Virus record (IMG/VR): IMGVR_UViG_3300028832_000112
Coordinates: 32,001 to 96,000 of that record
Length of the DNA: 64,000 nucleotides
Reading direction: 5' to 3' (one strand)
From: a virus
Taxonomy: Duplodnaviria > Caudoviricetes
Shown: positions 5,277-23,782 of the stretch, piece by piece
Position numbering within the stretch: the first letter of the stretch is position 1
How the letters are laid out: every line of letters starts with the position of its first letter
The notes under the pieces: model-generated
The model's input: the letters and a program-made list of their open reading frames with translations, nothing else
The model's database searches: none
Told to the model about the DNA's origin: nothing
Program-made: the position numbers and the translations under genes

Positions 5277-5278
5277 TT

Positions 5279-5548: not shown

Positions 5549-5717
5549 GATTTGCGCGTTCGAGCAGCTTTTGCTGCTCCTTATCAAGGAAGCCGAGAAG
5601 AAGGCGACCAGCAAGTGGAAGTCCTTCGTGAGGGGCGTGAAGACGGTTATCTACACGTTCATGGTTATCCGAATCTTGGTTGCAATTTATCTCAAGGTGA
5701 AGAACAAAGATGCCTAA
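5526..5717 (+). CDS. small membrane protein
   Basis: hydrophobic C-terminal segment; overlaps both neighbours. Confidence 0.55.
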
Positions 5718-7440: not shown

Positions 7441-7904
7441 TGATGTTTTCTTCATGCTGCGACAAGTGCGCCACTTGCGCGTTGGGTGCTGGCCATGGTT
7501 GCTTGGCTGGCCACGGCGACGACGACTACGTACCAGCCACAAAGCAAGAGGTTATCGACCGTCTTGACGCTGGCGATTATTGCAACGACCGTCAAGCGAT
7601 GATCGATTACTTGCAGAAGCGTTATAAATACGTGTACAGACTTCCTTGTGGCGACGCTGTCAAGTATCGGAATGCGGTGATCTCGTTGCTCAAGGCCCAG
7701 TACCAGTATGAAATAAGCAGTCCGTTCGCTCTGGTCGGTTATTTCTTGGAAAATCCGACATACTTCTATTCCAAGGCATTCATGCAGCAGCACTGGCCTG
7801 ATTACAGGTCGAGACCGTTTACTGAAGCCGAACGACGCTACAATGGACTGTCTCGTGCCGATCGTCGCTATGTATTTGAACAAGTTTGGGGAAAGAACAG
7901 ATAA
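7437..7904 (+). CDS. hypothetical protein, Cys-rich N-terminus
   Basis: AGGAG SD, ATGA overlap. Confidence 0.7.
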   Translation: MMMFSSCCDKCATCALGAGHGCLAGHGDDDYVPATKQEVIDRLDAGDYCNDRQAMIDYLQKRYKYVYRLPCGDAVKYRNAVISLLKAQYQYEISSPFALVGYFLENPTYFYSKAFMQQHWPDYRSRPFTEAERRYNGLSRADRRYVFEQVWGKNR

Positions 7905-7937
7905 ACTCTATATATCACCAATAAAAAGGATTGATAT

Positions 7938-8141
7938 ATGGAAGATCAGAAGGTCTGCAACATTCTCACGAAGGTTCGTGGCATGAGCGTCAACGGACAG
8001 TCCCCAGTGGACTACATCGACGGCGTTCTCGACACGATCCCCAGCCATCACAACTTTACGCCGGAAGCTGCAGCTTGCCCTCGCAAGACGCCGATTCTGG
8101 GAGCCGATTACGGCCCTACCGACGCGAAGCCGTGCTTCTAA
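7938..8141 (+). CDS. small hypothetical protein
   Basis: AAGGA SD, ATAAACT upstream, terminator downstream. Confidence 0.7.
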   Translation: MEDQKVCNILTKVRGMSVNGQSPVDYIDGVLDTIPSHHNFTPEAAACPRKTPILGADYGPTDAKPCF

Positions 8142-8145
8142 TGAC

Positions 8146-8170
8146 AAGCCCCTCAACCGAGGGGCTTTTA
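8146..8170 (+). terminator. intrinsic terminator
   Basis: AAGCCCCTC-aacc-GAGGGGCTTTT. Confidence 0.8.
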
Positions 8171-8186
8171 ATATAATTTCATTTGC

Positions 8187-8732
8187 ATGAATACAAATGT
8201 AGATTTTAACTTGTGGTTTAGCGATGAAAACTCCGAAGGCGCTCGTCGCAAGACCGTCCTAGATGAAGAACCAGCACCAAGGCTGCCGAGCATTCCGATG
8301 CATCCAAATAGCATCCTTGTTAGCAATAGGTTCACCGTGAAGTTCATCCCAGAAAAAACTTCGGCGTGGTCGATTGACAACCTTGGTAACTACATCAAGG
8401 ATATCGACTTCAAACCGAAGGAGATTCTGTTTTCGTTCTATAACACGAAGGACTTTCAGTTCTACCGAGAGGCGAATAAGTTTGGCTGTACTGGCATAAT
8501 TGTAGTTGACATCACGTCCTATGACGGCGTCACTCCAGTAGAAACGACTCGCTACCGTGTCCGTATATCCGAACCGCCTTGGCGTTCAACTTTGTCTGCA
8601 TCTGACGAGGAATCGTTCTCGCTCACTTATGTCAAGGGAACCATTATGGCCGTCGGAGAACCGGACGAAGTCGAATGGCATGACCATACCGATATATCGG
8701 TCGGTGCCGAACGGTTCGATTCTGCATGGTAA
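8187..8732 (+). CDS. hypothetical protein (weak resemblance to tail-tube gp19 fold)
   Basis: TATAAT just upstream; NRFTVKF motif. Confidence 0.6.
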   Translation: MNTNVDFNLWFSDENSEGARRKTVLDEEPAPRLPSIPMHPNSILVSNRFTVKFIPEKTSAWSIDNLGNYIKDIDFKPKEILFSFYNTKDFQFYREANKFGCTGIIVVDITSYDGVTPVETTRYRVRISEPPWRSTLSASDEESFSLTYVKGTIMAVGEPDEVEWHDHTDISVGAERFDSAW

Positions 8733-9299
8733 TCAGCGAGCCCTCAAGGCTTTCCAGTCACTTCTAGCCCTTTCCAAGGCCGAGTCGAATTCAGACTTGG
8801 CCTTTTCCATATAGGCGGCGATGTGCTTCGATAGAAGCGCCTTGGCAACTGTCTCGTAGTCTTCGGTGTAGTAGACGTTGCATCCGTCGTCGCAGAAGCC
8901 GTAGTCGTCCACTTGGCGCAAGGACACCTCGTCCACGTCCTCCGGCATGTCGTGGGTTATTCCGTTAACCAGATCCCAGTGTAGGCAGAGTATCGTGTTG
9001 CTGGGCGTAGTGTCGAAGTCGACCGAGTGCTCGTTGCCCTGCATGTCCTCGAAAATGACGCACTTTCCACGGTTCGTGTTCGTGACGAGCTTGACTATCA
9101 TCGAATCCGGGTGCTTTTCGGAATGCTGCCCAGCGGTAGCGTCCTCGTGGTAGATCAAGTTGTGGTGGATAGGGCACAACGGAATAGTCACCTTCTTGCC
9201 GAGGCGGTTTCCGGCCTCTCTGAGGTGGATATGGTGGTATTCTATAAGCGAACGCTTGTCTGTTTCGTAATTACAGCCTGGAAAGCAGCACTTGTACAT
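8733..9299 (-). CDS. HNH endonuclease-like protein
   Basis: CCFPGC...EYHHIH...PLCPIHHNLIYH. Confidence 0.75.
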   Translation of the reverse strand: MYKCCFPGCNYETDKRSLIEYHHIHLREAGNRLGKKVTIPLCPIHHNLIYHEDATAGQHSEKHPDSMIVKLVTNTNRGKCVIFEDMQGNEHSVDFDTTPSNTILCLHWDLVNGITHDMPEDVDEVSLRQVDDYGFCDDGCNVYYTEDYETVAKALLSKHIAAYMEKAKSEFDSALERARSDWKALRAR

Positions 9300-9309
9300 G
9301 GCACCAAAC

Positions 9310-9338
9310 TTGATTGTTTGAACGAAATATACTATATT
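9310..9338 (+). promoter_or_regulatory. early promoter; leaderless start at 9346
   Basis: TTGATT-N17-TATATT, ATG 7 nt downstream. Confidence 0.7.
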
Positions 9339-9345
9339 TCAAGTC

Positions 9346-10575
9346 ATGATTCAAATTCCGCACATGTCGCGCTTTTACGAGGCGGCCAATGCTGGTCGTC
9401 TCATGTCAGATACCAGTGACGACGGTCGCTTGGTATGCTTCAAGTACACCGAGGCAACTGCCGCCAATGCGGACTGGGACGAAGTCACGCTCAATGCGCG
9501 TGGCATCGTGTTCGAGACGGCGACTGGTAAGGTGGTCGCCCGTCCGTGGCACAAGTTCTTCAACTACCATGAGCTGTTCGGCGAACACGAACTGGCCAAG
9601 AAGACTCTGGAAGCGGTCAAGAAGGCTGGCCTTCCCCTTGGCATGGACGGAATTCCGCTGATGTTCGACAAGATCGACGGCTCGCTCGGCATCGTATTCT
9701 GGTATGGCGGCAAGTGGAACGTGACCACTGGCTGCAGCTTCCATTCTCCGCAAGTCCTCTGGGGCCGCATGTGGCTCAACGACCACATGAGGAAGCTCAA
9801 GTGTCCAATCGCCGACGACGCCTACAACAAGGTCATCAAGTCGCAGACGCACTTGTTCGAAATCGTCTGGCACCTTGACAAGCATCCTATTCGTTATCCG
9901 AAGGACGAAATGGTGTACTTGGGCGCGATCGAGACCAGCACTGGCGAAGAACTTCGCTCGGTATCCATTCGCAGCGCGTTCGCGGCAATGTTCGGCACCC
10001 ACATGCCGGAAAAGTTCGATTTCTCGTCCATTGAGAAGGTCGCGGAAATCTGCAAGACGCTTCCGGCTGACCACGAAGGCTTCGTCATCACGTGGCCTAG
10101 CGGATTCAAGCTGAAGATGAAGGGCGACGCATACTTGATGATGATGGGCTACTACGACAAGTGTACCGACAAGTATTTCTGGCGAGCCTACGACCCTAAT
10201 CTCAACATCTTCCATGCGAACCTCGACGCCGAACATAACTACGCCTATATCGACGACGAACCGCTGGTCATTCCAGAGGAACTGTTCGATATCCGTAACC
10301 GCATGGAGCTGTACGTGACTCGTTTCAGCGAGGCGCTGGACTACGTCATTTCCACTGGCGACTTCATCAAGATGACGCAGCATACGATGAAGGAACGCGC
10401 CTTGTACATCCAAGAGCATTTTGGCGAGGCGCAGCAAGCTCCGTTGCTCTCCTATGTTCGCGGAGACCGCATGGAGAATGTCAAGCGCATCGTCAACAAG
10501 ACGATGATGCGTCCGGAAAAGGGCGCGTCCGACAAGAATCCTTACATCGGCTATCACGAGGACAAAGATGACTGA
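9346..10575 (+). CDS. T4 RnlA/Rnl1-family RNA ligase
   Basis: ARGIVF, KFFNY, DKIDGSLG (KxDGS), LFEIV, EGFVI, KLKMK. Confidence 0.9.
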   Translation: MIQIPHMSRFYEAANAGRLMSDTSDDGRLVCFKYTEATAANADWDEVTLNARGIVFETATGKVVARPWHKFFNYHELFGEHELAKKTLEAVKKAGLPLGMDGIPLMFDKIDGSLGIVFWYGGKWNVTTGCSFHSPQVLWGRMWLNDHMRKLKCPIADDAYNKVIKSQTHLFEIVWHLDKHPIRYPKDEMVYLGAIETSTGEELRSVSIRSAFAAMFGTHMPEKFDFSSIEKVAEICKTLPADHEGFVITWPSGFKLKMKGDAYLMMMGYYDKCTDKYFWRAYDPNLNIFHANLDAEHNYAYIDDEPLVIPEELFDIRNRMELYVTRFSEALDYVISTGDFIKMTQHTMKERALYIQEHFGEAQQAPLLSYVRGDRMENVKRIVNKTMMRPEKGASDKNPYIGYHEDKDD

Positions 10576-11041
10576 AGAAAAATTCATTTCCATTCTGCCG
10601 CTGTTCCGTGGAACGACTAAGCAAGCGAAGGCGGCGTTGGCGGCATACCCAGAAATCCAGCGCATCGACATCGGTGTAATCCGTAAGATCCTGGGATACA
10701 GCGGTACGCCTACGAAGGTACACGCCACGCCAGAACTTCTTGACAAAATGGTGGACAGATATCGCAACGGCGAGGGTACTTTGCGCGGTCTCGCCAAGGA
10801 GTACCGGGTTGCGCCCAAAACGTTCCAGCGAGCCTTGCATAAGGCTGGTTTCGACACGTCTAGGCAAGATACTTGGACGACCATCAAGGAAAAGCGTCTG
10901 CTGAACTACATTTCGCAAGGAATGACCTATACCGAGATAGCAAAGCTGTTCAACATCAGCGTATCCGCTGTCTCCCAAAAGGCTCACCGACTCGGTGTAC
11001 CCAATGTCAAACCGGGCCACCCAAACCCAAATCGCCATTAA
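10568..11041 (+). CDS. helix-turn-helix DNA-binding protein
   Basis: GMTYTEIAKLFNISVSAVSQKAHRLG. Confidence 0.75.
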   Translation: MTEEKFISILPLFRGTTKQAKAALAAYPEIQRIDIGVIRKILGYSGTPTKVHATPELLDKMVDRYRNGEGTLRGLAKEYRVAPKTFQRALHKAGFDTSRQDTWTTIKEKRLLNYISQGMTYTEIAKLFNISVSAVSQKAHRLGVPNVKPGHPNPNRH

Positions 11042-11052
11042 TGAGGTAAAAA

Positions 11053-11373
11053 ATGAACGAAGAAATTAGCATCTGCAATCCGAAACTCACCGAGTTCGAT
11101 ATCTGGAATGCCCAGCCGAGAAAGGTTGTGTGTACAACTACCGACAAATCTCCGATGAGCGCTGGGGATGAACCGACGAGTCTTGTTGCTGGTAACGAAT
11201 ACGAAGTCGAGCGTGTACAAGTGGAAAGCTGGTATACGCTCGTAAAGCTTGCTGGCGTGGACGGCTGGTACAACTCCGTGCTGTTCTCGGAACTCGATGG
11301 ATATGAACCAGTGAAAGACAGTCCGAGCAAGCGAGCTTGGCTTGGAACGCCGCAGCCGGGAGACTGGGATTAG
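11053..11373 (+). CDS. hypothetical protein
   Basis: GAGG SD, operon context. Confidence 0.7.
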   Translation: MNEEISICNPKLTEFDIWNAQPRKVVCTTTDKSPMSAGDEPTSLVAGNEYEVERVQVESWYTLVKLAGVDGWYNSVLFSELDGYEPVKDSPSKRAWLGTPQPGDWD

Positions 11374-11375
11374 TC

Positions 11376-11768
11376 ATGTGGGGTTTGCGCCTAGAATGCT
11401 GCAAGAAGTGCGGCTGTACGTTCCAGCTTCGTCAAGGCCAGTATGAAGGTTATGGCGGCTGGTATGATGAGGACGGCCTCTGCTATTGGTGCAAGCGCGA
11501 GAAAACCGTCGGCAAGGAGCAGACCGATGATGAGTTCGATGAATATTGCAAGTGCAACGACTTGGTCGGAGAAACTATAGAAGGAATGCATCATTGGTGG
11601 TGGTGGGTTCTCGTGATTATGGGTGCCGCTATATGGTGCGGTATGATCTCGACGCTATGCACTGGATGTCAAGAAATCCGCAAGGCTCAAGTAGAAAAAC
11701 TCCGGTGCGAGTCTCCAGCACCATCATGGGCTAAACCGACTGGATGTAATACAAAGGAAGCAAAATGA
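11376..11768 (+). CDS. hypothetical protein with CxxC pairs and one TM helix
   Basis: CKKCGC/CYWC; WWWWVLVIMGAAIW. Confidence 0.65.
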   Translation: MWGLRLECCKKCGCTFQLRQGQYEGYGGWYDEDGLCYWCKREKTVGKEQTDDEFDEYCKCNDLVGETIEGMHHWWWWVLVIMGAAIWCGMISTLCTGCQEIRKAQVEKLRCESPAPSWAKPTGCNTKEAK

Positions 11769-12361
11769 AAAATTTAATATTGGTTATTGGACGTTCTGGC
11801 GCTGGCAAGGATTCTCTCATCCGCCACGCCAAGGAAGTTTTCAAGGACGTGTACAACATCGTGTCCGTTCCGTCCTATACGGATAGGCCGATGCGACCGG
11901 GCGAGACCGACGGCGTGGAACATACCTTCCTCACCAAGGAAGCGTTCGACGACCTCATGAAGCGCGAGACGATGTTCGGTTACACGAAGATCGGAGAAAC
12001 TGGGTTCCGCTACTGCTCTACCGTTGAAATGCTCAACCGTCTCGAAGGCGACACCATCTTCTACACGATCGATCCGAACGGCTACGACTACTGTCTCCAG
12101 TTCAAGGACATGTTCAATTTGAAAGTAATTTATGTCACTGCGAGCGAAGATATCCGCCGGGAACGTGCGAACGCTCGCAACGGTGACACGAGTACTTGGG
12201 AAAAGCGCAAGTCCGACGAGGACGGCCAGTTCAACTGCTTCGAGGCGCGAAAGCCTTGGGACGCAATGATTACGAACGATGGCGAGCTTGTCGAAGCCGA
12301 AAACGAGTTCGTGTTCGCTGTGAGCAAACTTCTATCAGGAGACGAAGATGTCGGAAAATAG
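11765..12361 (+). CDS. gmk: guanylate kinase
   Basis: GRSGAGKDS, SYTDRPMRPGETDGVEHTF. Confidence 0.92.
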   Translation: MKNLILVIGRSGAGKDSLIRHAKEVFKDVYNIVSVPSYTDRPMRPGETDGVEHTFLTKEAFDDLMKRETMFGYTKIGETGFRYCSTVEMLNRLEGDTIFYTIDPNGYDYCLQFKDMFNLKVIYVTASEDIRRERANARNGDTSTWEKRKSDEDGQFNCFEARKPWDAMITNDGELVEAENEFVFAVSKLLSGDEDVGK

Positions 12362-12839
12362 TAAGACTCCTACGACAAATGAAATAGAACGCGAGTTCTA
12401 TTATGCAATGTTGCCAGCAAGTGGCAACGAAAGCGGCACTGGCGACCTCTATTTCTGGTTCAGCAATATGGCTCGCCGTGGAATTCCTAGTGACTACGGC
12501 TGGTCGACGATACCGGAAGATGTGAAGCATGGCTATTCGTCGTCCAAGGATTCCTTGATGGAGTTCCTTCACAATACGCTGGCTCTGGATATCGACCGAG
12601 GCACTTGGAGCATGGCGGAAGCTACTGCCGTGCAGATATTCAAGGTCACTGAAAAAGTCGTGACGACAACATCGGTAGAACCCTATCCTTCCCTCAAGGT
12701 CGAGGAGTCCGCCATAACTGAGGTCGGCGAGGAAAAGTACGGCTGGAACGACCATGAGGAAACCACCACTTGCCCAAGGTGCGGCGAAGAAGGCGTTCCG
12801 TACGGTAATTGCCCTCACTGCGGCTATGACATCCACTAA
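12348..12839 (+). CDS. hypothetical protein, C-terminal Zn ribbon
   Basis: CPRCG...CPHCG. Confidence 0.7.
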   Translation: MSENSKTPTTNEIEREFYYAMLPASGNESGTGDLYFWFSNMARRGIPSDYGWSTIPEDVKHGYSSSKDSLMEFLHNTLALDIDRGTWSMAEATAVQIFKVTEKVVTTTSVEPYPSLKVEESAITEVGEEKYGWNDHEETTTCPRCGEEGVPYGNCPHCGYDIH

Positions 12840-12878
12840 TTGCCGTTTTTGAGCGAATTTAGCGTTCCCCTTCTGAAA

Positions 12879-12912
12879 GGGCCCAGACTGGACATCCCGG
12901 TCTGGGCTTTTT
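12879..12912 (+). terminator. intrinsic terminator
   Basis: GCCCAGACTGG..CCGGTCTGGGC followed by T-tract. Confidence 0.75.
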
Positions 12913-12940
12913 GCATAAGCTCCTAGTAAGGAGGCTGGAT

Positions 12941-13465
12941 ATGGCGGAACCGATTGTTCGACTTGTGGGCGATATAGACGAGGAAGTGGTATCAGAGGTC
13001 ATCGAGAAGCTGGGTAGGCTCTCACATAACGTGGGGAAGGTCATTCTGCTTATCGACAGCGACGGCGGTTCCATAGAAGAAGGCTTCCGATTGATCGACA
13101 CCATCCGGATTCTCCAAGACAAAGGGATAACCGTCCACACGGTTGGGTCGGGAAAACTTTATTCAATGTCATTTTTTGTCTTCTGCTCAGGAAAGGAACG
13201 GACTGCCTATCCGAGCACTCGATTCATGTCGCATTGTGCTCGATATGATGGGTTGGGTGAGAACGAGGCGTATACGGCGTCTGACTTGCGCGTTTTGCTC
13301 CAGGAAATGGAATACTACGACCGCATGATGAAGTCTGTGCTGATGGACGCCGGAGTAAGTTCTGCAGATGCAGACCAGCTATTAACGAAAAAGGACGTGT
13401 ATTTCAACGTCCCTCAAGCAATACATCTTGGAATTGTCCAGAAAGAAGAACACGATATCGTCTAG
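12941..13465 (+). CDS. ClpP-family protease
   Basis: IDSDGGSI, LYSMS (catalytic Ser), FMSH (His), AIHLGIV; AAGGAGG SD. Confidence 0.88.
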   Translation: MAEPIVRLVGDIDEEVVSEVIEKLGRLSHNVGKVILLIDSDGGSIEEGFRLIDTIRILQDKGITVHTVGSGKLYSMSFFVFCSGKERTAYPSTRFMSHCARYDGLGENEAYTASDLRVLLQEMEYYDRMMKSVLMDAGVSSADADQLLTKKDVYFNVPQAIHLGIVQKEEHDIV

Positions 13466-14208
13466 GACAGCTCCACCGACATCCAGTCGTCGAAGTCGAA
13501 GAATTCGAACGGCATTTTCTGGTCTTTCATGTGGAGCCAGACATCGGTCGTGATGACGTGCGAACCGTTGAGCGCGTCTTCCACTTTCTTGTTGAGAAGC
13601 GGAATGCGGTCATCTAGGCTGCCGTCTCTTGCCGACAGTCCGTGCATCTCGATCTTGGCTTCTGGACGGTACATACCCTTGTCGTACGCTTCTAGTAGTT
13701 TGTTCTGGATACGATTGAATCGTCCGGTCGGAATGTAATTGTCGAACACGGTTCCGTCGTAAGTTAGTTGCACGAGGCGCACCTTGTAACGGCGCTGCAG
13801 CTCGCGCATTATGTGCCTACGCATGTTCATGAAGAACTGGTCGCATCGGTCGGTGAGGATGAAGTGGTCTACTTCTTGTTTCACGTTGCCGAACGAGTCG
13901 ACGAAGGTCGAGTCGCAGCGAAGCGACTTGAGGTCGATATCCAGTTCCGTCGAGAACAAGTGCAGAGACTTCTTCGAGTTGTACGCGACGTGACCGATCT
14001 CGTGGATTTCTTGGTTGTCCGGCAAGACGATGCCAGTCTCCTCTTTCAGTTCACGCTTCGCCGCTTCGAGCGGAGTCTCGCCGTTCTCGATGTGGCCCTT
14101 CGGAATGTCGTAGGCGTAATTGTAGGTATAGGGACGTCCAGTCGGATGTCCTCCAAGCACCTTATGGGTGCTCTTGTCAATGATGATAAAACCAGCTGAT
14201 AGTTCCAT
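13462..14208 (-). CDS. NUDIX hydrolase with C-terminal extension
   Basis: Nudix box PKGHIENGETPLEAAKRELKEETG. Confidence 0.92.
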   Translation of the reverse strand: MELSAGFIIIDKSTHKVLGGHPTGRPYTYNYAYDIPKGHIENGETPLEAAKRELKEETGIVLPDNQEIHEIGHVAYNSKKSLHLFSTELDIDLKSLRCDSTFVDSFGNVKQEVDHFILTDRCDQFFMNMRRHIMRELQRRYKVRLVQLTYDGTVFDNYIPTGRFNRIQNKLLEAYDKGMYRPEAKIEMHGLSARDGSLDDRIPLLNKKVEDALNGSHVITTDVWLHMKDQKMPFEFFDFDDWMSVELS

Positions 14209-14223
14209 GCCTATTAAATTAGC

Positions 14224-14427
14224 TTAATCGCAGTCCTTGTTGATTTCGTAGGGCTGCTGGGGTTCCGTTACGTCGATGCGCTTGACCGTGGTCGTCGGCG
14301 TCACCTTCTGGGCGTCCATGCCGAGGAGGACGATACGCTTCATTTCGTCATATTCCTCGTCCGTTGCGTTGTCCGGGACGAAGAACTTCTGGACTTGCTT
14401 GTATTCGCGAGTGACTTCGAACTGCAT
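14224..14427 (-). CDS. small hypothetical protein
   Basis: AGGAG SD; reverse promoter at 14468-14496. Confidence 0.65.
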   Translation of the reverse strand: MQFEVTREYKQVQKFFVPDNATDEEYDEMKRIVLLGMDAQKVTPTTTVKRIDVTEPQQPYEINKDCD

Positions 14428-14525
14428 AAGAATCTCCTTGTTTCTTACTTTTTTCTTATTTATATAAAATATAGCAATTTTCCGTGTTCTCGTCACCTAA
14501 ACTGATTGGAAAAGGAAGAAATTTT

Positions 14526-15341
14526 ATGGGTTTCAATATGCCTAAGACCAAAACAGTAGAACACGGCGAGATTACCTTAGAACAGCTCAATGAAATCAAG
14601 CGATGCGCAAGTGACTTGTCTTATTTCGCCAAGTACATAAAGCTCGAAAAGAATGGATATCCGATCAACTGGAGAGACTACCAGCTTCGCGAGTTCGACA
14701 TTCTCCAGAAGTACAACAACGTCATCCACAACTGGTGTAGGCAAGCTGGCAACCGATGGATCGAGGCCGCCTATGTGTTGTGGTACGTGACGTTCAACTC
14801 GTCTCGCTGCTGTGTGCTGTTGGATGTCAAGCATAGCATGGCCAAGGAACAGCTCGCGCTTATCAAGACGATGTACTTGAACTTGCCGTGGTGGTTGAAG
14901 AAGGAAGCCGATTTCCATAAGATATACGCCACGTTCGGTTCTGGCATAGACAAATGCACCATATTCGTTGAGGCGTACGGCCTTGGTGGATTCCGTGGTA
15001 AGACGGTTAACTTGTTCATGTGTCGGAATTTTGCATTTGTCAAGGAATCCATAGCAAACGATTTCGCGGCTTCCGTATTTCCGGTACACATGTCAGGTAA
15101 TCCGAAGAATCACCGCATGCTGATATCCTCTTGTCCAAACGGCAAGGGCAACTTGTTCCATCATCTGTGGAATAGTTGCATCCAGCTGCCCAACGTGATT
15201 CAGCCGGAATCGACGTCGTTTGTCGGTACGGAAGTGACGTACAGCAAGCAAGTCAAGCCGTACGTGAAAAAGGACATGTCGAGCTTGCTTCCGCGCCACA
15301 TCTACCTCGCCGAGTATGAATGTAAATTCGTGGACAGATAA
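14526..15341 (+). CDS. degenerate T4 gp17-like large terminase ATPase domain (no nuclease domain)
   Basis: YFAKYIK, RDYQ, CRQAGNR, RGKTVNLFMCRNFAFV, ISSCPNG.GNLFHHLW, ends at EYECKF. Confidence 0.75.
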   Translation: MGFNMPKTKTVEHGEITLEQLNEIKRCASDLSYFAKYIKLEKNGYPINWRDYQLREFDILQKYNNVIHNWCRQAGNRWIEAAYVLWYVTFNSSRCCVLLDVKHSMAKEQLALIKTMYLNLPWWLKKEADFHKIYATFGSGIDKCTIFVEAYGLGGFRGKTVNLFMCRNFAFVKESIANDFAASVFPVHMSGNPKNHRMLISSCPNGKGNLFHHLWNSCIQLPNVIQPESTSFVGTEVTYSKQVKPYVKKDMSSLLPRHIYLAEYECKFVDR

Positions 15342-15374
15342 TAAACTGTGGCTAAAGTCTCCTACGAGGAAACA

Positions 15375-15653
15375 ATGGCTAATATGAAATCTGTCGATGA
15401 AGTTATCGACGCCGAAATCGGCGGTTCTCCGATTTGCGAAGCCGTGAAGCAGATCGCTGGCACGTTGTTTGAGTCAATCGATTACAACAACGCAAGTGCC
15501 GTGTACAATGCTCTTGCAGAAGGCCAGTACTTTACTGACGCGGAACTTGAGCTTGTTACCAATGGCTGGGGCTTGAACACTGATACCTTGGACAGAATCT
15601 GCCAAGTCCGCTATGGCGGCGATGCAGACCAAGTTATTGAAGGACGTGTATGA
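15375..15653 (+). CDS. small acidic hypothetical protein
   Basis: GAGGA SD before ATG 15375; ATGA overlap with patatin. Confidence 0.7.
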   Translation: MANMKSVDEVIDAEIGGSPICEAVKQIAGTLFESIDYNNASAVYNALAEGQYFTDAELELVTNGWGLNTDTLDRICQVRYGGDADQVIEGRV

Positions 15654-16522
15654 GACCCTACCTAGCTATCAGTATCAACGGCGGCGGTGCCCTCGGCATC
15701 GGCCCTCTCGCGTTCATGGAACGTCTCGAAAGCGATGTCGGTAGAGGACTCAACGAAATCGGCGTTGCGTTTGCTGGAACTTCTACTGGCTCCATCATCG
15801 CTGGCGGTTTCGACGAAGGATATAACGCCCATGAATTACGTAAGCTGTACCGTGACAACTTGAAGAAGATTTTCACGAAGTATTCGTGGTACAAGCGCTT
15901 GCAGCCTTCTTGCCCGACCTACGACAACTCCTACTTGAAGGAACTCCTCAAGAAGAAGTTCAAGGGAAAGGTCAGCGACTGGAAGAAGCCCATTTACATT
16001 CCGACTACGCACACGAACGGTGAAAGCGTGGAGAAGGTTTGGGACTTGGGCGATACGAAGGTCGACAAGTGGTTCGCCATCTTGACAAGCACTGCGGCTC
16101 CTACATTCTTCGATGTTGTCGTTCAAGACGGCCAAAGTTTTTGTGACGGTGGTATGTGGGCGAACTCTCCGATTGCAGTCCTCAACGCTGGCTTGAAGCG
16201 TTCTGAGTACGTAGGCAAGCTCCGCATTCTTTCGTTCAACACTGGCATGGATACGCCGAACACGCTCAAGGGAAACCAGTCCCTCATCGGTTGGGCTACC
16301 TACCTCAAGGACGAATGGATCGCTCGCGCCGGAAAGAGCAACGACTACGAAGTCATCGCCGATCTCGGCGCAGAGAACGTGGCCATCGCCTCTCCGAAGC
16401 ACTCTTCAAAGATTGCGATGGACAAGACCGACGACGACACGCTCAATAAGATCGAGAAAATCTGGACGGACTACTACGATGCCAACCGTGAATATTTCAA
16501 GAAATTCGTGAAGTGCTACTAG
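15650..16522 (+). CDS. patatin-like phospholipase
   Basis: GGGALG, GTSTG nucleophile elbow, AAPTFF, DGG. Confidence 0.92.
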   Translation: MRPYLAISINGGGALGIGPLAFMERLESDVGRGLNEIGVAFAGTSTGSIIAGGFDEGYNAHELRKLYRDNLKKIFTKYSWYKRLQPSCPTYDNSYLKELLKKKFKGKVSDWKKPIYIPTTHTNGESVEKVWDLGDTKVDKWFAILTSTAAPTFFDVVVQDGQSFCDGGMWANSPIAVLNAGLKRSEYVGKLRILSFNTGMDTPNTLKGNQSLIGWATYLKDEWIARAGKSNDYEVIADLGAENVAIASPKHSSKIAMDKTDDDTLNKIEKIWTDYYDANREYFKKFVKCY

Positions 16523-16552
16523 GAACGGCTGGAAATGGATAAAAAAGGGGAT

Positions 16553-16581
16553 TTGCCAAGCAAATCCTCTTTTGCTATATT
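16553..16581 (+). promoter_or_regulatory. early promoter embedded in terminator hairpin
   Basis: TTGCCA-N17-TATATT; hairpin GGGGATTTG-ccaag-CAAATCCTC. Confidence 0.75.
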
Positions 16582-16607
16582 TAGGGCAACTTATCACTGG
16601 AATTCTC

Positions 16608-17372
16608 ATGGGAGAACTCAAACAAGCAGCTGGCATCAAGGTGGTACTCCAAGACCATTACGAAATGCCGAACCCACTTGAAACGACTTGCACCGTACTG
16701 TCATCGATCGGTATAAGCCCAGAATACTCACCGATGGCTGGCACGACGGAACTCTGGATCAACAGCGATGACGGTTCCTCGAAGTATGTTGGCTATCTTG
16801 ACTTTATCCACGATTTGCCGACTGGTCGACGTAATCTCTGGGGTCACACCGACGGCGGCAAGGCGATGCAACTCCTGACTGATAAGGACATCTTTGAATT
16901 CAAGGATATTCTCATGGCAGAAAACAACATCCAAGACAACGACGCACTCGAAATCATCGTACAGTACCAGCACGAAGACACCTACCGTCTCAAGGCTATC
17001 GAAAAGGGCAACTGGATCGACATGGCCGCCGACGAAGACGTGACTATCAAGGCTGGCGAACTCAAGCTCATCAACCTCGGAGTGGCTATGAAGCTTCCGG
17101 AAGGCTACGAAGGACACCTTGCCCCTCGTTCCTCCACGCTCAAGAAGTTCGGTGTGCTTCAGGCAAATTCAGTCGGCGTCGTCGACGATACATACTGTGG
17201 CCCTACAGACTGGTGGCGCTTCCCGGCATTCGCTACTCGCGATACCGAGATCAAGCGCGGCGAACGCATCTGCCAGTTCCGCATCATGGAAGTGCAGCCG
17301 AAGCTCCGCTTCACCGAAGGAAAGATGGTCGCCGAAGACCGAGGCGGATTCGGTTCCACCGGGACAAAGTAA
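16608..17372 (+). CDS. dut: trimeric dUTPase with ~100-aa N-terminal extension
   Basis: WIDM, PRSS, GVVDDTYCG, RICQFRI, RGGFGSTG. Confidence 0.9.
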   Translation: MGELKQAAGIKVVLQDHYEMPNPLETTCTVLSSIGISPEYSPMAGTTELWINSDDGSSKYVGYLDFIHDLPTGRRNLWGHTDGGKAMQLLTDKDIFEFKDILMAENNIQDNDALEIIVQYQHEDTYRLKAIEKGNWIDMAADEDVTIKAGELKLINLGVAMKLPEGYEGHLAPRSSTLKKFGVLQANSVGVVDDTYCGPTDWWRFPAFATRDTEIKRGERICQFRIMEVQPKLRFTEGKMVAEDRGGFGSTGTK

Positions 17373-17390
17373 TTGTTGTTAGTCCATACA

Positions 17391-17420
17391 AGATCGCCAG
17401 CGTCTGCTGGCGGTCTTTTT
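17391..17420 (+). terminator. intrinsic terminator
   Basis: AGATCGCCAGC-gtct-GCTGGCGGTCTTTTT. Confidence 0.8.
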
Positions 17421-17434
17421 CATAAACTAGGGTC

Positions 17435-17725
17435 ATGCAAGCATTTCTCCACTCGATAGCTCCTTTCCTTGGCGGTTTCGGCTCGTTTCTCTTTGCGATC
17501 GTCAACGTTCCTATCATCGTAAAAATTTATATGCAGAAGTCCACAGAAGGGACTTCTTTGCTGTTTGTGCTGATGTCGTTCTTTGCGAACATCTGCTGCG
17601 GCATGTTCGTGCTGGACAACAACCTCACTACGGGCGTATGGCAGATTCCGCTTTATTGCAACTACGGATTCGCGTTCTGCTGTTGCTGCTGGATTCTGTA
17701 CTTGTTCCATAAGTTCAAGAAATAG
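17435..17725 (+). CDS. PQ-loop/SemiSWEET-like 3-TM transporter
   Basis: three hydrophobic helices, P.IVKIY..KSTEGTS, PLYCNY. Confidence 0.7.
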   Translation: MQAFLHSIAPFLGGFGSFLFAIVNVPIIVKIYMQKSTEGTSLLFVLMSFFANICCGMFVLDNNLTTGVWQIPLYCNYGFAFCCCCWILYLFHKFKK

Positions 17726-17736
17726 AATAATTTATC

Positions 17737-19722
17737 ATGTGGAAATTCAAAACAAAAGGAACACTCCACATGTGTAATTATCCAGAAGAATCCTCACGTC
17801 CATTGTCCACGATGGAATGCCAGAACGCCTTTGACCAGCTCGTCTCTGAGACGGAACAGCCCAAGGCAGATGCTAACTATTCACCCGATCCTGAACGTAT
17901 TGCTGATATTACTAATCAGTACAAGCTGTTTGCAAAGACATTGGAACCGAAGAAGTCCGACGATATGACCGACAACGAGCCGCTGCGCATTGTCGAGCGC
18001 AAGCCTACCGCCGATCCCCACTTCGACGAGATCAAGTTCAACCGTGAACCGACATTTGCCGAAGTGAAGCAGATGTGCAGTGACGAAGGCATGTCTATCG
18101 CAGACGAGACGATTCCTACTCTCACCAAGGAAACAATCGAAAAGGCTACAGAAGCGTTTGACGACGTGCCGACGGACGAAGCTGTGGACGTAGATCTGGA
18201 CGAAGCTCCGGAAGAAGTCAACGAAGCTTCGAGCACCGAGTTCTTGGAAGAAGATGCGCCGGACGAAGGCGAAGAAGAACCCAATCCGGTCAAGGAAGCT
18301 TTCGCGAAGGTCGCCAAGGAAGTCGACCAGCAGCTGAAGGACGAATGCGAAGGCAACTGCATCAAGTGCGACAACCATTGCCACGACAAGGTTGATGTGA
18401 AGGTGCCGTCCGAAAACGACAAGTTCAGAGCGTCATGCGCGATTGAGTTCTTGCACAAAAAAGAAATTGGCCAAGACAATGTAGCTGACCACTTGGACGT
18501 TATTGACGATATCTATACGACGCTTACCGAAACACAGCTCAAGCTGGTAACGGATGAAGCTCCTTGGCTTACGGCGGTGTTCCAAGACGCCGATATTCGC
18601 AAGGCGGAACGCGAGAGCGCGGCGAGAAAAGAAGCCGAACTCGAAGCTGCCGATGAAAAGTCCAAGGCTCAAGCCGAACAGCTTACTAGCAAGCTCGAAG
18701 GAAAGACTGGCAACTGGGAAGCTGACGCACAGAAGGCCCAGTACGAGGCATGGACTGACCTAGTGAAGAAGTGGCCGACCTTGTCGAAGGATGTGCAAGA
18801 CGTTCTTGAACGCATCCCTGGGTTCACCGCATTCCGAAACTACACGCAGTCCCAGATGAATTCTGAAGCATTCAAGCAGAAGATCGACTACGATCCGGAA
18901 CAGACCGTGAAGGAAATGGCCAGAGCCCACGAGCTGGGAAACATTTCTGCCGCAGACGCCGCGAAGTTCATGGATGAACCAGACATGATCAGCAAGTTCG
19001 CTATGGGCAACAGTCCAGAATTCGACCAGCTGAACAAGGAACGCAACGAGTTCAGTACGAACAACTTCTCGAAGGCGACCAACATGTTCGAGAAGCTTCA
19101 GAATGACGGACATATTCCGCCGACGAACAAGGGTGCCGACCCTAGTCTGTTCTCAAATCAGACGTACCGCCAGTTCTGGAAGAATGCGCCTGAAGCTGAG
19201 CTCGGCAATACTCTTATCTTCGGCCCGACGCCTTGCATGTTCGATACGGTCAAGGACGGTAACGGTTTCGGAAAGGGTGACTGCACGGTTGGCGATATCT
19301 TTGAACAAGAATACGCTCGCTCCAGGAAGGTTAATGCTAGTCATCCGATCGTCCAGCCGAAGAAGCCGCTGACCCCGGAAGAGTCCTTGGCGAACCTCAT
19401 GACGGACTTGCCGAAGACGATGGTGAACAAGATTCTCGCCATTCCGAGTGACGACTGGAAGTTCAAGTTTGACGGTGAGGCGTTTGAACTTTGTTACAAT
19501 GTCGCTTCTCGTACAATCCGCTTGTCGATGTTCAAGAAGAAGCTGGTGGACAGCGACCACTTGGGTAGCGTGTTCTCGTTGAGCTTCGTCAACGATGGCC
19601 CCGGCAGCGTTCAGTACAACCGTTCTTTCAACGCATTGAAGGATATCTCCGCCGCTGGCCCCAACGCAAAGCGTCTTTACCAGTGGTTCGGTAAGATAAT
19701 TGCAACATTCTTCAGCAAATAA
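17737..19722 (+). CDS. large acidic hypothetical protein
   Basis: 661-aa ORF with D/E-rich and coiled-coil regions. Confidence 0.8.
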   Translation: MWKFKTKGTLHMCNYPEESSRPLSTMECQNAFDQLVSETEQPKADANYSPDPERIADITNQYKLFAKTLEPKKSDDMTDNEPLRIVERKPTADPHFDEIKFNREPTFAEVKQMCSDEGMSIADETIPTLTKETIEKATEAFDDVPTDEAVDVDLDEAPEEVNEASSTEFLEEDAPDEGEEEPNPVKEAFAKVAKEVDQQLKDECEGNCIKCDNHCHDKVDVKVPSENDKFRASCAIEFLHKKEIGQDNVADHLDVIDDIYTTLTETQLKLVTDEAPWLTAVFQDADIRKAERESAARKEAELEAADEKSKAQAEQLTSKLEGKTGNWEADAQKAQYEAWTDLVKKWPTLSKDVQDVLERIPGFTAFRNYTQSQMNSEAFKQKIDYDPEQTVKEMARAHELGNISAADAAKFMDEPDMISKFAMGNSPEFDQLNKERNEFSTNNFSKATNMFEKLQNDGHIPPTNKGADPSLFSNQTYRQFWKNAPEAELGNTLIFGPTPCMFDTVKDGNGFGKGDCTVGDIFEQEYARSRKVNASHPIVQPKKPLTPEESLANLMTDLPKTMVNKILAIPSDDWKFKFDGEAFELCYNVASRTIRLSMFKKKLVDSDHLGSVFSLSFVNDGPGSVQYNRSFNALKDISAAGPNAKRLYQWFGKIIATFFSK

Positions 19723-19777
19723 TGTAATTTAAAACATGGACGCGGTCTGTGGGAAGCCGTGTCCGGCATAGTGGAGT

Positions 19778-19812
19778 CGGCCACCGAGAGAAATCTTGGT
19801 GGCCGCTTTTTT
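19778..19812 (+). terminator. intrinsic terminator
   Basis: CGGCCACCGAGA-gaaa-TCTTGGTGGCCG-CTTTTTT. Confidence 0.85.
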
Positions 19813-19847
19813 GATAAACTGCGATTAGCTTGAAACGATTGGCCACT

Positions 19848-21119
19848 ATGAACGAGATTGAACAGCTGAAAGAATTTTCGGCAATACTAGAATCCATCGA
19901 AATGCCGGAGCACTTGTCGACGGCGTTGATGGAAGCGTTCACGTTTACTCACCACGACTTTGTCATTCCGCCAGACCAGCCGCTGCCTCCAGAGATCGAG
20001 GCTGAAATTAAGCGTCGCTTGGAGAAGCTTGAACAAAAGAACAAGTCTTGGGGCATCCCGTTTGATCCGGTCGAGGCTCGCCGTAAACTGGAAACCCAAG
20101 CTCGAAAGTTCCCACAGAGTTTTTCGTTGGCTACTGACGCTGCGAAGAAAGGTCGTGAACGTTACGAGCAGTATTTGGACAACATCGTCGGCATGAACAT
20201 GCGCAACTCGTCCATCAGCGTACCGAATCCGCACGAAGCTCGCCAGAACTACTACAAGGCCGCAGTGGATGTCGTTGCGAGAACTTATCAGAAATATGGA
20301 ATTCCGTTCGACGCACAGAAGAATCTCGATTACGTTATGCGCCATGACCGTGACAGCGACCACCGCGAGTTCGACCGTACCACCGCGCAGAACCTCTCGT
20401 TCCCTACATTCGATGCGGCCAATACCAACAGAATCTTGAACATGCTCAAGCTTGAGAACTCCGCGCTCCGCACGGTGCTGCAGAAGTGCTACTGGTTCCT
20501 CGTAAACCTTCAGAAGGCCCAAGAGGAAGGTTCCGTCGGCGGATACTTGATGGTTCAGAAGATGAAGTATTCGACTGACGCTGTTCCTGAAGAAGCCAAG
20601 CCAGTCGCCAAGCTTACCGAGGAAGACCAAGCCGAGTTCGACCGCAAGGAAGCCGAACGCATCGCCAAGGAGAACGCTCCGAAGGGCTACCAGCCAGTCG
20701 CCTCTAGGGTGTCTTGCATCGGTGAACTCCGAAACGTGTTCAGCCGTCTTCCGTACTACAAGCTGTACCAGCGTTACGCCCAGTCCGCGAACCCAGCGCA
20801 GCTGGAGATGACTCCGAGACCGAACGAGAAGTTCTTCCAGTTCCTATGGCGAGTCAACCGTGGCGGCATTCCGGTAGGCGCTTTCGTAGACCACCTTGCG
20901 AAGGACATGAAGGCCGCATACCCAGAGATGGACTGGAACCGCACCCTCGAATACTACATGGACAAGGTAAAGGATTTCCGGGACTTCTCAAGGCTGTCGC
21001 AGCGCGATACCGAGAATGCATTGAAACAAGGTCTTATTACCCAAGACAATGCGGCGCTCTACAAGATCTGGTCGACCTTCCAATACATAAAGCAAGCGAA
21101 AGAAGAGCTCGGACGCTAG
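19848..21119 (+). CDS. hypothetical protein (possible virion/internal protein)
   Basis: ATAAACT upstream; repeated GIPFD motif. Confidence 0.75.
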   Translation: MNEIEQLKEFSAILESIEMPEHLSTALMEAFTFTHHDFVIPPDQPLPPEIEAEIKRRLEKLEQKNKSWGIPFDPVEARRKLETQARKFPQSFSLATDAAKKGRERYEQYLDNIVGMNMRNSSISVPNPHEARQNYYKAAVDVVARTYQKYGIPFDAQKNLDYVMRHDRDSDHREFDRTTAQNLSFPTFDAANTNRILNMLKLENSALRTVLQKCYWFLVNLQKAQEEGSVGGYLMVQKMKYSTDAVPEEAKPVAKLTEEDQAEFDRKEAERIAKENAPKGYQPVASRVSCIGELRNVFSRLPYYKLYQRYAQSANPAQLEMTPRPNEKFFQFLWRVNRGGIPVGAFVDHLAKDMKAAYPEMDWNRTLEYYMDKVKDFRDFSRLSQRDTENALKQGLITQDNAALYKIWSTFQYIKQAKEELGR

Positions 21120-21126
21120 TCCTCGT

Positions 21127-21155
21127 TTGATTTTTGCTGAACTCCTTGCTATATT
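21127..21155 (+). promoter_or_regulatory. early promoter
   Basis: TTGATT-N17-TATATT. Confidence 0.7.
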
Positions 21156-21176
21156 TATGGCAAGGAGTTTTTTATT

Positions 21177-21347
21177 ATGAAAGTAATCATGCATCATCAG
21201 GTGACTGGCGGCGTCGAGAACGTCGACAAGTGGATCATGGAACAAGGACTTTCCTTGTCCGACGTCCAGATCGTGTTCATGTACAATCCGCGTGGAAGCC
21301 GCTACATGGTATTCTACGAAGCCGAAGTGGAAGACAAGAAGAAATGA
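21177..21347 (+). CDS. 56-aa hypothetical protein (not in ORF track)
   Basis: AGGAG SD, MKVIMHHQVTGG..., ATGA overlap with next gene. Confidence 0.65.
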   Translation: MKVIMHHQVTGGVENVDKWIMEQGLSLSDVQIVFMYNPRGSRYMVFYEAEVEDKKK

Positions 21348-21823
21348 GGAAATTGATGCCAGTCTTTTTCGCCGTCCTACTGGTGGTGTCCTTGGCCCGT
21401 GCGGTAAGGATGGTTAAAAAGATTGCCGCTGGCACGGCGGCTGGCATCGCTGACTTCTACTCCCAGATCAGCATAGCCGACAACTACTATGTCGGCGTTA
21501 TGGTAAATGCGTGGAGTAAAAACGGCCCGATTCGTGTCGCATATCTATGGCGAGAAACCGCCACTAGGGATCGGCAGCTCGCTGATAATGTCAAGAACTA
21601 TGTCGCTAGGCAGATTCCGTCGCTAAAGAGCGAACTGGTAGTCAAGAAGGCGTCACCAGTCAAGGATTCTGGCCGTGCGGATATGCATATAGGGTCGATG
21701 TCGATGACTCCGGGTGTAACCGCCCAAGAGAAATTTATGCTCAGGACGGCATCCGCCATATTGTCCGCTGGTAAGATACTGCGCGAGGCACTAAAGAGGA
21801 AACCGAAATGGGACGACTTGTAA
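21344..21823 (+). CDS. hypothetical protein with signal-like N-terminus
   Basis: MRKLMPVFFAVLLVVSLA. Confidence 0.55.
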   Translation: MRKLMPVFFAVLLVVSLARAVRMVKKIAAGTAAGIADFYSQISIADNYYVGVMVNAWSKNGPIRVAYLWRETATRDRQLADNVKNYVARQIPSLKSELVVKKASPVKDSGRADMHIGSMSMTPGVTAQEKFMLRTASAILSAGKILREALKRKPKWDDL

Positions 21824-22494
21824 GCATGACATCGTGGCGTGGAAGAATCCACCGTGTCGCTGACACTGTGGCTACCATACGCGCACACGCGAAAAATGCG
21901 CACATCGTCCTTACTCTTGCCGAGGACGAGTTCGAAGGCGTCGGACTGCCTGAGCTGGGCGTGGACGAAGTCATCTGGTGCCCAAGGAACATAGGCCCAT
22001 TCAAGAAGGTGCTGTACACGATGCGGCGCTATCCCGGCTGTCCAGTGCTGTCGGTCGACGACGACATTAGTTACGGACAAGTTGTCGATGCAATGTATGG
22101 CATGCACGAACGATACCCAGATGATGTTGTCAGCAACTTCCCCAATGTCAAGACTGGCGGTATCAGTCTGCCAAACGGATACGCTACTCTGTATCCGCCG
22201 AACTGTCTGGACGGCGCACTGGAGCTTCTGACGGACAGAATTGTGGCGACCAAGAACGACGATGCGTTCTATGGGCTTATTTTAATGGAAAAAGGATACA
22301 AATTCCGTTACGCAATGCGCCACGATATTGCTATATTTGACAAAGACAACGACGGTTTGCACTTGCTGATGAAGTACCACGGCAACGAAGACATCAAGGT
22401 CATCGTATCCGAGCTGTACAAGTCAGGCAAGTTCAACCCGACCGACCCAACATTCATCAGCAAATACCCAAAGGAGAAATATGTCCTACAATAA
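21808..22494 (+). CDS. GT-A fold glycosyltransferase-like protein
   Basis: VSMTSW..RI, GPFKK, SVDDDISY (DxD), DDAFY. Confidence 0.7.
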   Translation: MGRLVSMTSWRGRIHRVADTVATIRAHAKNAHIVLTLAEDEFEGVGLPELGVDEVIWCPRNIGPFKKVLYTMRRYPGCPVLSVDDDISYGQVVDAMYGMHERYPDDVVSNFPNVKTGGISLPNGYATLYPPNCLDGALELLTDRIVATKNDDAFYGLILMEKGYKFRYAMRHDIAIFDKDNDGLHLLMKYHGNEDIKVIVSELYKSGKFNPTDPTFISKYPKEKYVLQ

Positions 22495-23320
22495 TTTCAA
22501 CATCGCCGTGTTCGAAAGCACGATGAAGAAAATCAATGACACGCCGTCCATCTACAAGGCGGTGGAAGCCGCTACGGCAGCCCAGAAGTATTACTTCGGC
22601 GACGCACCAGCACCCACGGTCGACCGTTTCGAAAAGCCGTGCGAACTCCGCTTGACGCGCAACCGCACCGTCGACGCTGGCCGCAAGGTGCTGAAGGACG
22701 ATCCGACCGCCAAGGTCGCCATTCTCAACTTCGCAAGCGCCACTCGACCGGGCGGCGGAGTCACCTCTGGTTCCTCTGCACAAGAAGAGTGCATCTGCCG
22801 CGTGTCTGGCCTCTACAAGTGCCTCACTACTCCGGAAGCCGTCAAGCGCTTCTACGACTACCACAAGACGAGCGTGGGCCCTCTGCACAACGATGACATC
22901 ATCTACACGCCGAACGTCCCCGTCTTGAAGACTGACGACTACGACTTCCTCGACGAGCCAGTCTACCTCGACGTGATCACTTGTGCAGCTCCTAACCTTC
23001 GCGAGAAGAACGTCTCCCAGTACAACCAAGAACGTGAACCCGCGCCGGACATTTCCGACGACGAACTCTACAAGCTCCACGTGAGCCGCGCTCGCCAGAT
23101 CCTCAACGTCGCTGCCGCCAACGGTGCGGACGTCGTTATCCTCGGTGCATTCGGCTGCGGTGCATTCCGCAACAAGCCGGAAGTCGTCGCCAAGGCTTAC
23201 GCCGACGTCGTGCCTGACTACCTCAAGCAGTTCAAGGCTATCGAGTTCGCCATCTTCTGTCCGAAGGGCAAGCCGACCGACAACTACGACGCCTTTAAGG
23301 CTGTCTTTGGGAGAAAGTAA
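22481..23320 (+). CDS. TIGR02452/DUF2263 bacterial PARG-like macrodomain hydrolase
   Basis: LNFASATRPGGG...AQEECICR, IYTPNV, ITCAAPN, LGAFGCGAFRN. Confidence 0.93.
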   Translation: MSYNNFNIAVFESTMKKINDTPSIYKAVEAATAAQKYYFGDAPAPTVDRFEKPCELRLTRNRTVDAGRKVLKDDPTAKVAILNFASATRPGGGVTSGSSAQEECICRVSGLYKCLTTPEAVKRFYDYHKTSVGPLHNDDIIYTPNVPVLKTDDYDFLDEPVYLDVITCAAPNLREKNVSQYNQEREPAPDISDDELYKLHVSRARQILNVAAANGADVVILGAFGCGAFRNKPEVVAKAYADVVPDYLKQFKAIEFAIFCPKGKPTDNYDAFKAVFGRK

Positions 23321-23321
23321 T

Positions 23322-23774: not shown

Positions 23775-23782
23775 GGTAGACA

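Follow-up and report, generated by a model that had tools for sequence, protein, structure and literature searches.

The open reading frame (ORF) at positions 14526-15341 of the window, by which we mean the whole 64,000-nucleotide stretch analysed here (bases 32001-96000 of a 105,680-bp IMG/VR virus record), lies on the plus strand and encodes a protein, called here Q, that is homologous to the ATPase domain of the large terminase subunit TerL and in which the catalytic residues of that domain are replaced. No protein of tailed phages is more conserved than TerL, which is also a main target of bacterial pattern-recognition immunity. Truncated terminase paralogs have already been remarked on in jumbo phages and have never been explained; what appears to be new here is a family of such paralogs that is invisible to Pfam, catalytically dead as judged from its sequence, selected, and unlinked from terL. 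We consider Q to be a stand-alone copy of the TerL ATPase domain that is catalytically inert and kept by selection, most likely acting as an accessory "conflict" gene rather than as a core part of the packaging motor, a reading that we hold with somewhat better than even confidence because the gene is accessory, resides in a hypervariable island associated with an HNH gene, has a strongly diverged allele and lies far from the packaging genes. From the 26% completeness that CheckV gives for the record, the genome of this rumen jumbo phage would measure about 400 kb; the record has a coding density of 92% under code 11, the standard code.

Homology, predicted fold and active site of Q

When the PDB was searched with phmmer, T4 gp17 was the only match of Q (E 9e-11, query residues 15-228), and the Q-family profile brought this value to 2.2e-14. 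The terL (terminase large subunit) families of PHROG also match Q (E 1e-17). A Pfam scan of Q returned no family at E<=1, the gathering score of Terminase_6N not being reached. An exhaustive search of 1.84 billion representatives yielded 1980 matches at E<=1e-3, essentially all of them T4-type TerLs sharing about 30-38% identity with Q, and tblastn against 50,697 phage records matched 2089 records, always at the annotated terL gene. These searches show that Q is a TerL homolog. Residues 19-269 of Q are colinear with residues 21-273 of P0004, a TerL of its phage family, the colinearity reaching from the N-terminus as far as the final strand of the ATPase domain. An AlphaFold2 model based on 102 sequences was obtained with a pLDDT of 92.8 and a pTM of 0.90, and Foldseek matched it best to the gp17 ATPase domain structures 2o0h and 3cpe (E 1.6e-14, TMq 0.80-0.81), with TerL ATPase domains from P74-26, D6E, Sf6 and HK97 coming next. 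The model shows that Q has the predicted ASCE ATPase fold of the gp17 N-terminal domain. It should be noted that 2o0h is the D255E/E256D mutant of T4 gp17 and that the wild-type Walker B motif, MIYIDE, is seen in 3ezk, which corrects the reference motif.

The catalytic motifs of Q were compared with those of 84 intact TerLs. The Walker A motif SRQxGK[TS] of TerL reads CRQAGNRW in Q (GKT>GNR), the Walker B motif hhhhDEFAF, of which the D and the E are 100% conserved in the intact TerLs, reads LFMCRNFAF (DE>RN), and the coupling motif IIxSTPNG reads LISSCPNG (ST>SC). Nevertheless, Q retains 28 of the 38 positions that are at least 80% conserved in the intact TerLs. Among those kept are the YQ adenine motif, the R-Q-x-G of the P-loop, P204/G206 and the RG motif that precedes Walker B; K76N, D167R, E168N, T203C, N139S and T151Y are among the 10 losses. 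Q has a diverged version of the VPGRDExW motif, which belongs to the subdomain II region of TerLs. It has no nuclease domain, as the ORF ends with TAATAA after EYECKFVDR and gives no match to PF17289. The loss of the catalytic positions together with the retention of 28 of the 38 conserved ones shows that the active site of Q has been selectively removed and the scaffold preserved.

These results agree with an earlier note on this DNA, made from the letters and the list of ORFs only. Its statement that the motifs CRQAGNR and LFMCRNFAF are colinear with those of gp17 is borne out by phmmer, Foldseek and the motif alignment. It was likewise right that the frame at 14526-15341 remains open over about 270 amino acids and stops just after EYECKF (the product has 271 residues), that the catalytic K/T and D/E pairs are lost (K76N and T77R, D167R and E168N) and that the nuclease domain is missing.

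The phage's own terminase, selection and distribution

To explain Q as the only terminase ATPase of the phage, one would have to suppose a split gene with the nuclease encoded elsewhere. No second TerL ATPase domain was found in the 105-kb record, which is what this explanation has in its favour. The nuclease was searched for in the same record and neither a Terminase_6C match nor a tblastn match to TerL C-terminal domains was obtained, ruling out a split terminase whose nuclease lies elsewhere in the record. Moreover, two rumen metagenome bins (G001 and G002) contain contigs that are 91-98% identical in nucleotide sequence to positions 5001-25000 of the window, and each of these bins has exactly one T4-type full-length TerL together with a Q ortholog. 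In the second bin, this TerL is carried at positions 7038-10031 of the 37-kb contig G002:C21 (L070:1039-4032) and consists of 997 amino acids with a LAGLIDADG intein in motif III. The contig is colinear with the record at bases 14394-17555 (94-96% identity) and at bases 2459-6725 (78%), and this overlap therefore places the intact terL about 11-14 kb beyond the left end of the record and about 57 kb from Q. TerL of this type aligns with gp17 across both domains (E 5.5e-61) and is found on contigs of up to 467 kb; in the syntenic relative G003, terL is 53 kb from the patatin locus that adjoins Q in the window. As a contig of this genome type carries a complete TerL, and as Q has other residues in place of the Lys/Thr of Walker A, the Asp/Glu of Walker B and the Thr of the coupling motif, we give the single, split terminase practically no weight. 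Because a complete TerL exists in the same phage type (in both bins and on the overlapping contig), Q is, judging from these sequences, a paralog, neither a half of a split terminase nor the packaging enzyme of the phage. A T4 gp16-type small terminase was searched for in this phage family and was not found. The intein deserves a separate mention: in the true TerL of close relatives (G002:C21, and G005:C1 at about 8.6-11.6 kb) it sits inside the coupling motif (IITS|C...) and gives ORFs of about 997 amino acids, and it is absent from the TerL of G001 and from P0004.

Six intact orthologs of Q were identified, and seven copies or fragments are open in frame; a search of IMG/VR for orthologs returned none beyond the source record itself. 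The orthologs are of equal length and share the end motif EYEC[KE]FV. All close orthologs (74-89% identical to Q) have GNR, CR[NH] and SSC at the three motifs, GNR being invariant in five of them. The distant P0001 allele has GKR, CHD and AST, and so retains R77; by this comparison, both the T>R change and the missing Walker B Asp go back to the ancestor of the Q family. Pairwise ratios of non-synonymous to synonymous substitution (dN/dS) were 0.13-0.16 for pairs with an unsaturated dS (0.44-0.47) and 0.05-0.07 for more distant pairs, values in the range of those of the neighbouring genes (0.09-0.17 for patatin and 0.10-0.16 for Nudix). These ratios show the signature of strong purifying selection on Q. 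They bear directly on the idea that Q is a decaying, functionless remnant of a partial terL duplication or of gene conversion mediated by a homing endonuclease. In keeping with such an origin, an HNH homing endonuclease gene lies about 100-400 nt from Q in three relatives, and the end of Q coincides with a known intein/intron hot spot of terL. The seven open copies or fragments, the dN/dS of 0.05-0.16, the conservation of the replaced catalytic residues themselves, that of the ribosome-binding site and leader, and the confidently predicted fold all speak against decay, which we judge very improbable; as far as sequence evidence goes, the intact orthologs and the dN/dS values refute a pseudogene or relic. 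The retained pseudo-enzyme paralog proposed in the earlier note is thus supported by the lost catalysis, the missing nuclease, the intact and selected orthologs and the separate full TerL: the intact terL was located on the overlapping contig, about 57 kb away, so that Q is not the sole terminase ATPase of this phage type, and the relatives show intact genes rather than pseudogenes.

Q is not present throughout the phage family. Wherever the surroundings of an ortholog are long enough to judge, the order Nudix, Q, small ORF, patatin is the same. Two IMG/VR relatives share the synteny of this region, G003 (355 kb, 93% complete) and G004 (81% complete), and their patatins are 71-72% identical to that of the window; in both, unrelated ORFs lie between Nudix/ClpP and patatin, and the Q-family hidden Markov model (HMM) finds nothing there. 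No homolog of Q was found in G005 (91% complete) either. Because syntenic, near-complete relatives are without it, these genome comparisons show Q as an accessory gene of one sub-lineage. The locus is also unusually variable among the phages that have it. Compared with bins that are about 96% identical, identity falls to 87% across Q and its two small neighbours g47 and g49 and to 78-91% over patatin, between flanks of 96-98%, and this drop begins exactly where an HNH (RRXRR) homing-endonuclease gene sits in L006, L007 and L008. The drop rightwards from the HNH site looks like a tract of co-conversion or recombination. In the L004 allele, Q is only 48% identical, the adjacent patatin is 80% identical and the 35-nt leader of Q is nearly unchanged. 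Q thus changes, by evolution or by exchange, at a much higher rate than the sequence on either side. We also noticed that the near-identical phage fragments L007 and L008 were binned in metagenome-assembled genomes labelled Prevotella sp. and Fibrobacter sp., that is, in two phyla, so that these labels are unusable for naming the host.

The origin of Q was addressed with a quick tree of 75 rows and a careful tree of 43 rows (LG+C20). The Q family forms a clade with 100% support on a long stem (1.36-1.59 changes per site), which joins the unresolved basal polytomy of the TerL radiation, outside the supported clade containing the phage family's own TerL. An approximately unbiased (AU) test did not reject a sister relationship of Q to that TerL (p 0.78). 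Q would thus stem either from an old duplication or from a fast-evolving one.

Local arrangement and translation signals

The coordinates of the features discussed here are given in Table 1. Around Q, the gene order is a guanylate-kinase-like gene, ClpP, Nudix (minus strand), a 67-amino-acid ORF (minus strand), Q, a 92-amino-acid ORF, a patatin-like phospholipase and dUTPase.

Table 1. Features of the Q locus in the window, the homing-endonuclease gene of relatives, and orthologs of Q
Feature	Position	Strand	Remarks
Q, stand-alone TerL ATPase-domain paralog, putative pseudo-ATPase, 271 aa	14526..15341	+	stop codon included
Non-coding 5' leader of Q with Shine-Dalgarno AAGGAAG	14490..14525	+	kept among orthologs
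Degenerate Walker A CRQAGNRW (K76N, T77R)	14736..14759	+	P-loop R72, Q73 and G75 retained
Degenerate Walker B LFMCRNFAF (D167R, E168N)	15012..15038	+
Degenerate coupling motif III LISSCPNG (T203C)	15120..15143	+
End of ATPase domain EYECKFVDR, then double stop TAATAA	15312..15344	+	full TerLs run on here into hinge and nuclease domain
g47, divergent small ORF, 67 aa	14224..14427	-	TG-extended -10 promoter at 14496-14468, minus strand
g49, small ORF, 92 aa, no family	15375..15653	+	stop overlaps patatin start (ATGA)
Patatin-like phospholipase, CBASS-effector-like	15650..16522	+	right-hand neighbour of Q in every long-enough ortholog context
Terminator-like hairpin closing the Q-g49-patatin unit	16543..16573	+	promoter-like site for next gene overlaps
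RRXRR/HNH homing-endonuclease gene, between Nudix and g47 in three relatives	L006:8282-9568, L007:330-1490	-	absent from window; equivalent site ~14213
Ortholog P0151			83% identity to Q
Ortholog P0152 / L006			82% identity to Q
Ortholog P0153 / L060			74% identity to Q
Orthologs L007, L071			89% identity to Q
Ortholog L008, fragment			88% identity to Q
Ortholog P0001 / L004			48% identity to Q

The Shine-Dalgarno sequence of Q lies 8 nt upstream of the ATG. The leader is non-coding, because it carries indels of +1 and -4 nt among the orthologs, and these indels, together with the Shine-Dalgarno sequence before the ATG, rule out an upstream in-frame GTG start at 14484. Its 35 nt (TCGTCACCTAAACTGATTGGAAAAGGAAG...) are nearly invariant, even in the L004 allele, whose protein is only 48% identical, and this conserved leader may be a translational operator or a recombination boundary. 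A second copy, as expected of a repeated regulatory motif, was not found in the 105-kb record, where the leader is unique. At the other end of the gene, recoding of the stop or readthrough into a downstream ORF in the same frame is ruled out by the double stop TAATAA and by the 92% coding density under code 11.

Because the gap between Q and g49 is short, g49 and patatin overlap at ATGA and a terminator-like hairpin follows, these three genes look like one transcription unit and probably are. A T4-type late promoter and the phage's own early promoter were both searched for upstream of Q and were not found. A functional link between Q and patatin is not supported, as relatives have g49-like and patatin genes without Q.

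The patatin itself has intact GGGxxG, GxSxG and DGG motifs, matches the CBASS (cyclic oligonucleotide-based antiphage signalling system)-type "Effector: Phospholipase" models of PADLOC from end to end (E 2e-36) and is 58-80% identical across the phage family. The hairpin downstream of it has a 14-bp stem, spans positions 16543-16581 when taken as terminator-like on both strands, and overlaps a TG-extended promoter (TTGCCA-17-TATATT) of the dUTPase gene. The dUTPase (window 16608-17372, plus strand) has an unexplained N-terminal extension of about 135 residues, the Pfam dUTPase domain covering residues 138-252 of 254.

Possible roles of Q and comparison with known terminase paralogs

Q is not the only protein of its kind. 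In 13 of its 150 best matches, the Walker A lysine, the catalytic Glu or both are degenerate; most of these 13 proteins are about 260-330 amino acids long. Degenerate ATPase-only paralogs fall in several clades separate from Q, a distribution which shows that catalytically inactivated TerL paralogs, as recognised from their sequences, probably arose several times and constitute a definable class of putative phage pseudo-ATPases. In L005:8057-11512, on a contig from a related T4-like phage, three genes stand in a row, encoding a ribbon-helix-helix (RHH) domain joined to a pseudo-ATPase (320 amino acids; GLS, DL), a second pseudo-ATPase (270 amino acids; GIS, SS) and a normal TerL (563 amino acids). 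The first of these proteins matches RHH_1 (E 1e-7), and the first two genes occupy the place of the small terminase of T4. The dead ATPase-only paralogs found besides Q comprise P0031/P0140, L005_320/P0067 (with RHH), P0071/P0122, a paralog of 445-480 amino acids in G003/G006, and the tandem fusion P0005. Like Q, they keep the fold and have the Walker A Lys and/or the catalytic Glu replaced; unlike Q, several of them adjoin terL or carry extra domains. The G003/G006 paralog (L053:1462-2799 = G003:C1:2193-3527; G006:C1:234530-235903) has the Walker A change K>Y, an intact DE, a degenerate motif III and a C-terminal region of about 170 residues unlike the nuclease; its two copies are 36% identical to each other, and it is absent from G004, G005 and G007. 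P0005, a metagenomic protein of 612 amino acids, has two tandem TerL ATPase domains (40-288 and 323-577), the second with degenerate Walker A and B motifs, and no nuclease.

One alternative is that Q, as a pseudo-ATPase derived from TerL, serves the packaging machine of its own phage as a regulator or adaptor. It would then dock on TerL, the portal or DNA in the manner of a small terminase or of an assembly or timing factor. The dead ATPase-only paralogs in the small-terminase slot upstream of terL in L005 and at BF gp272 and CBB_274, the lack of any detectable T4 gp16-type small terminase in this phage family, and the retention in Q of the P-loop Arg and the conserved RG motif are consistent with this role. 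By contrast, Q is absent from syntenic relatives that are 81-93% complete and have the same TerL type, its surroundings are auxiliary genes at a distance of about 57 kb from terL, a DNA-binding extension is lacking, and in the tree it stands apart from the paralogs that adjoin terL. A packaging subunit is therefore rather unlikely in our view.

We favour instead an accessory conflict gene. The nucleotide site of Q has been rebuilt (GKT>GNR, DE>RN, ST>SC) and the rebuilt site is conserved, so that the protein would be unable to hydrolyse ATP. Q would act by binding, filling a site that normally takes a TerL ATPase domain. It might in this way serve as a TerL look-alike that titrates or blocks a TerL-binding factor, be it a host sensor or a packaging component of a rival phage or satellite. 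Several observations weigh against this reading. Dead ATPase-only paralogs occur elsewhere directly upstream of terL, one of them with an RHH DNA-binding domain, and suggest that proteins of this kind generally have a role in packaging; ATP binding without hydrolysis is possible, given that the lysine of Walker A is still present in the P0001 allele; the fast divergence of Q rests on one diverged allele; and a strong or consensus promoter was looked for upstream of Q and was not found.

The earlier note had offered two options, the first being a decoy for terminase-sensing Avs receptors. Q would then bind such receptors (Avs1-3, and also Upx) without activating them and shield the real TerL. 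The TerL ATPase domain alone is the ligand of EcAvs2 and Upx (PMC13601566), and the stand-alone T4 protein vs.8 triggers EcAvs2 (PMC13601566); Q is also accessory, has a fast-diverging allele and lies in a variable island next to genes of counter-defence type. EcAvs2 and SeAvs3, however, contact the terminase-bound ATP, its Mg2+ and active-site residues (PMC13601566). Because Q has erased the ATP site and the active-site residues that Avs2 and Avs3 read, a simple decoy for these receptors is not favoured; the erased nucleotide site would suit a protein that has to be made and must go unrecognised better than one that mimics the ligand. As for Upx, the ATPase core triggers it in catalytically active and inactive form alike (PMC13601566), and binding of Q would be expected to set it off rather than to block it. 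No PADLOC or anti-defence family matches Q, and literature searches found no such terminase decoy. A decoy of this kind is thus improbable.

The second option was a dominant-negative inhibitor of packaging by competing phages. Q would then poison the motors of phages or satellites in the same cell by entering the TerL ring or sitting on the portal as an inert subunit. Ring ATPases are generally sensitive to inert subunits, Q keeps the fold and most of the conserved non-catalytic residues of TerL and has lost catalysis, and the gene is accessory and variably distributed, all of which would fit. On the other side, nothing shows how the phage's own motor would be spared, the subdomain II region has diverged in Q, and a phage-encoded poison mimicking TerL has neither experimental precedent nor direct support; we regard this option as quite improbable. 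In its broadest form, our preferred reading would make Q a TerL mimic used in conflict, and perhaps likewise the dead TerL-ATPase paralogs that recur in jumbo phages generally: a non-activating look-alike that blocks Avs- or Upx-like sensors or sequesters the terminase-hijacking factors of satellites or rivals. We advance this extension tentatively, thinking it unlikely to hold in full; if true, a phage would here, for the first time, have made a counter-measure out of the very target of the immune system.

Q indicates that an extra terminase copy can be a true pseudo-enzyme, with the active site dismantled residue by residue, the fold kept and selection as on neighbouring enzymes. Such paralogs can mislead phage phylogeny based on terL, as well as binning and calls of genome completeness.

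Among characterised proteins, T4 vs.8 (219 amino acids) is a stand-alone TerL-ATPase-like early protein that triggers EcAvs2 (PMC13601566). It resembles Q in being a stand-alone TerL-ATPase-like protein and belongs to the early, non-essential genes of a T4-type phage. Its sequence similarity to Q is not significant (BLASTP E 0.44) and, unlike Q, it keeps both Walker A (GRQSGKS) and Walker B (IIDE). Compared with gp17, Q has no Pfam match, lies far from the packaging genes and is dispensable in relatives. A "truncated terminase-like protein" has been noted in Rak2-like jumbo phages (CBB_274; Serratia phage BF gp272) and in the Sinorhizobium phages phiM12 and phiN3 (PMC5259590, PMC7760394). Like Q, these proteins are ATPase-only TerL paralogs without nuclease, encoded in addition to a full TerL in jumbo phages of the T4 superfamily, and in BF gp272, as in Q, both Walker A (HRECGITL) and the catalytic Glu (FFDD) are degenerate. 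A structural search places CBB_274 near Q; BF gp272 is too short for placement in the tree. The genes of these truncated terminases are immediately upstream of terL and constant in their genus, whereas Q forms its own clade on a long stem and is found about 57 kb from terL, in an island of auxiliary genes and in one sub-lineage only.

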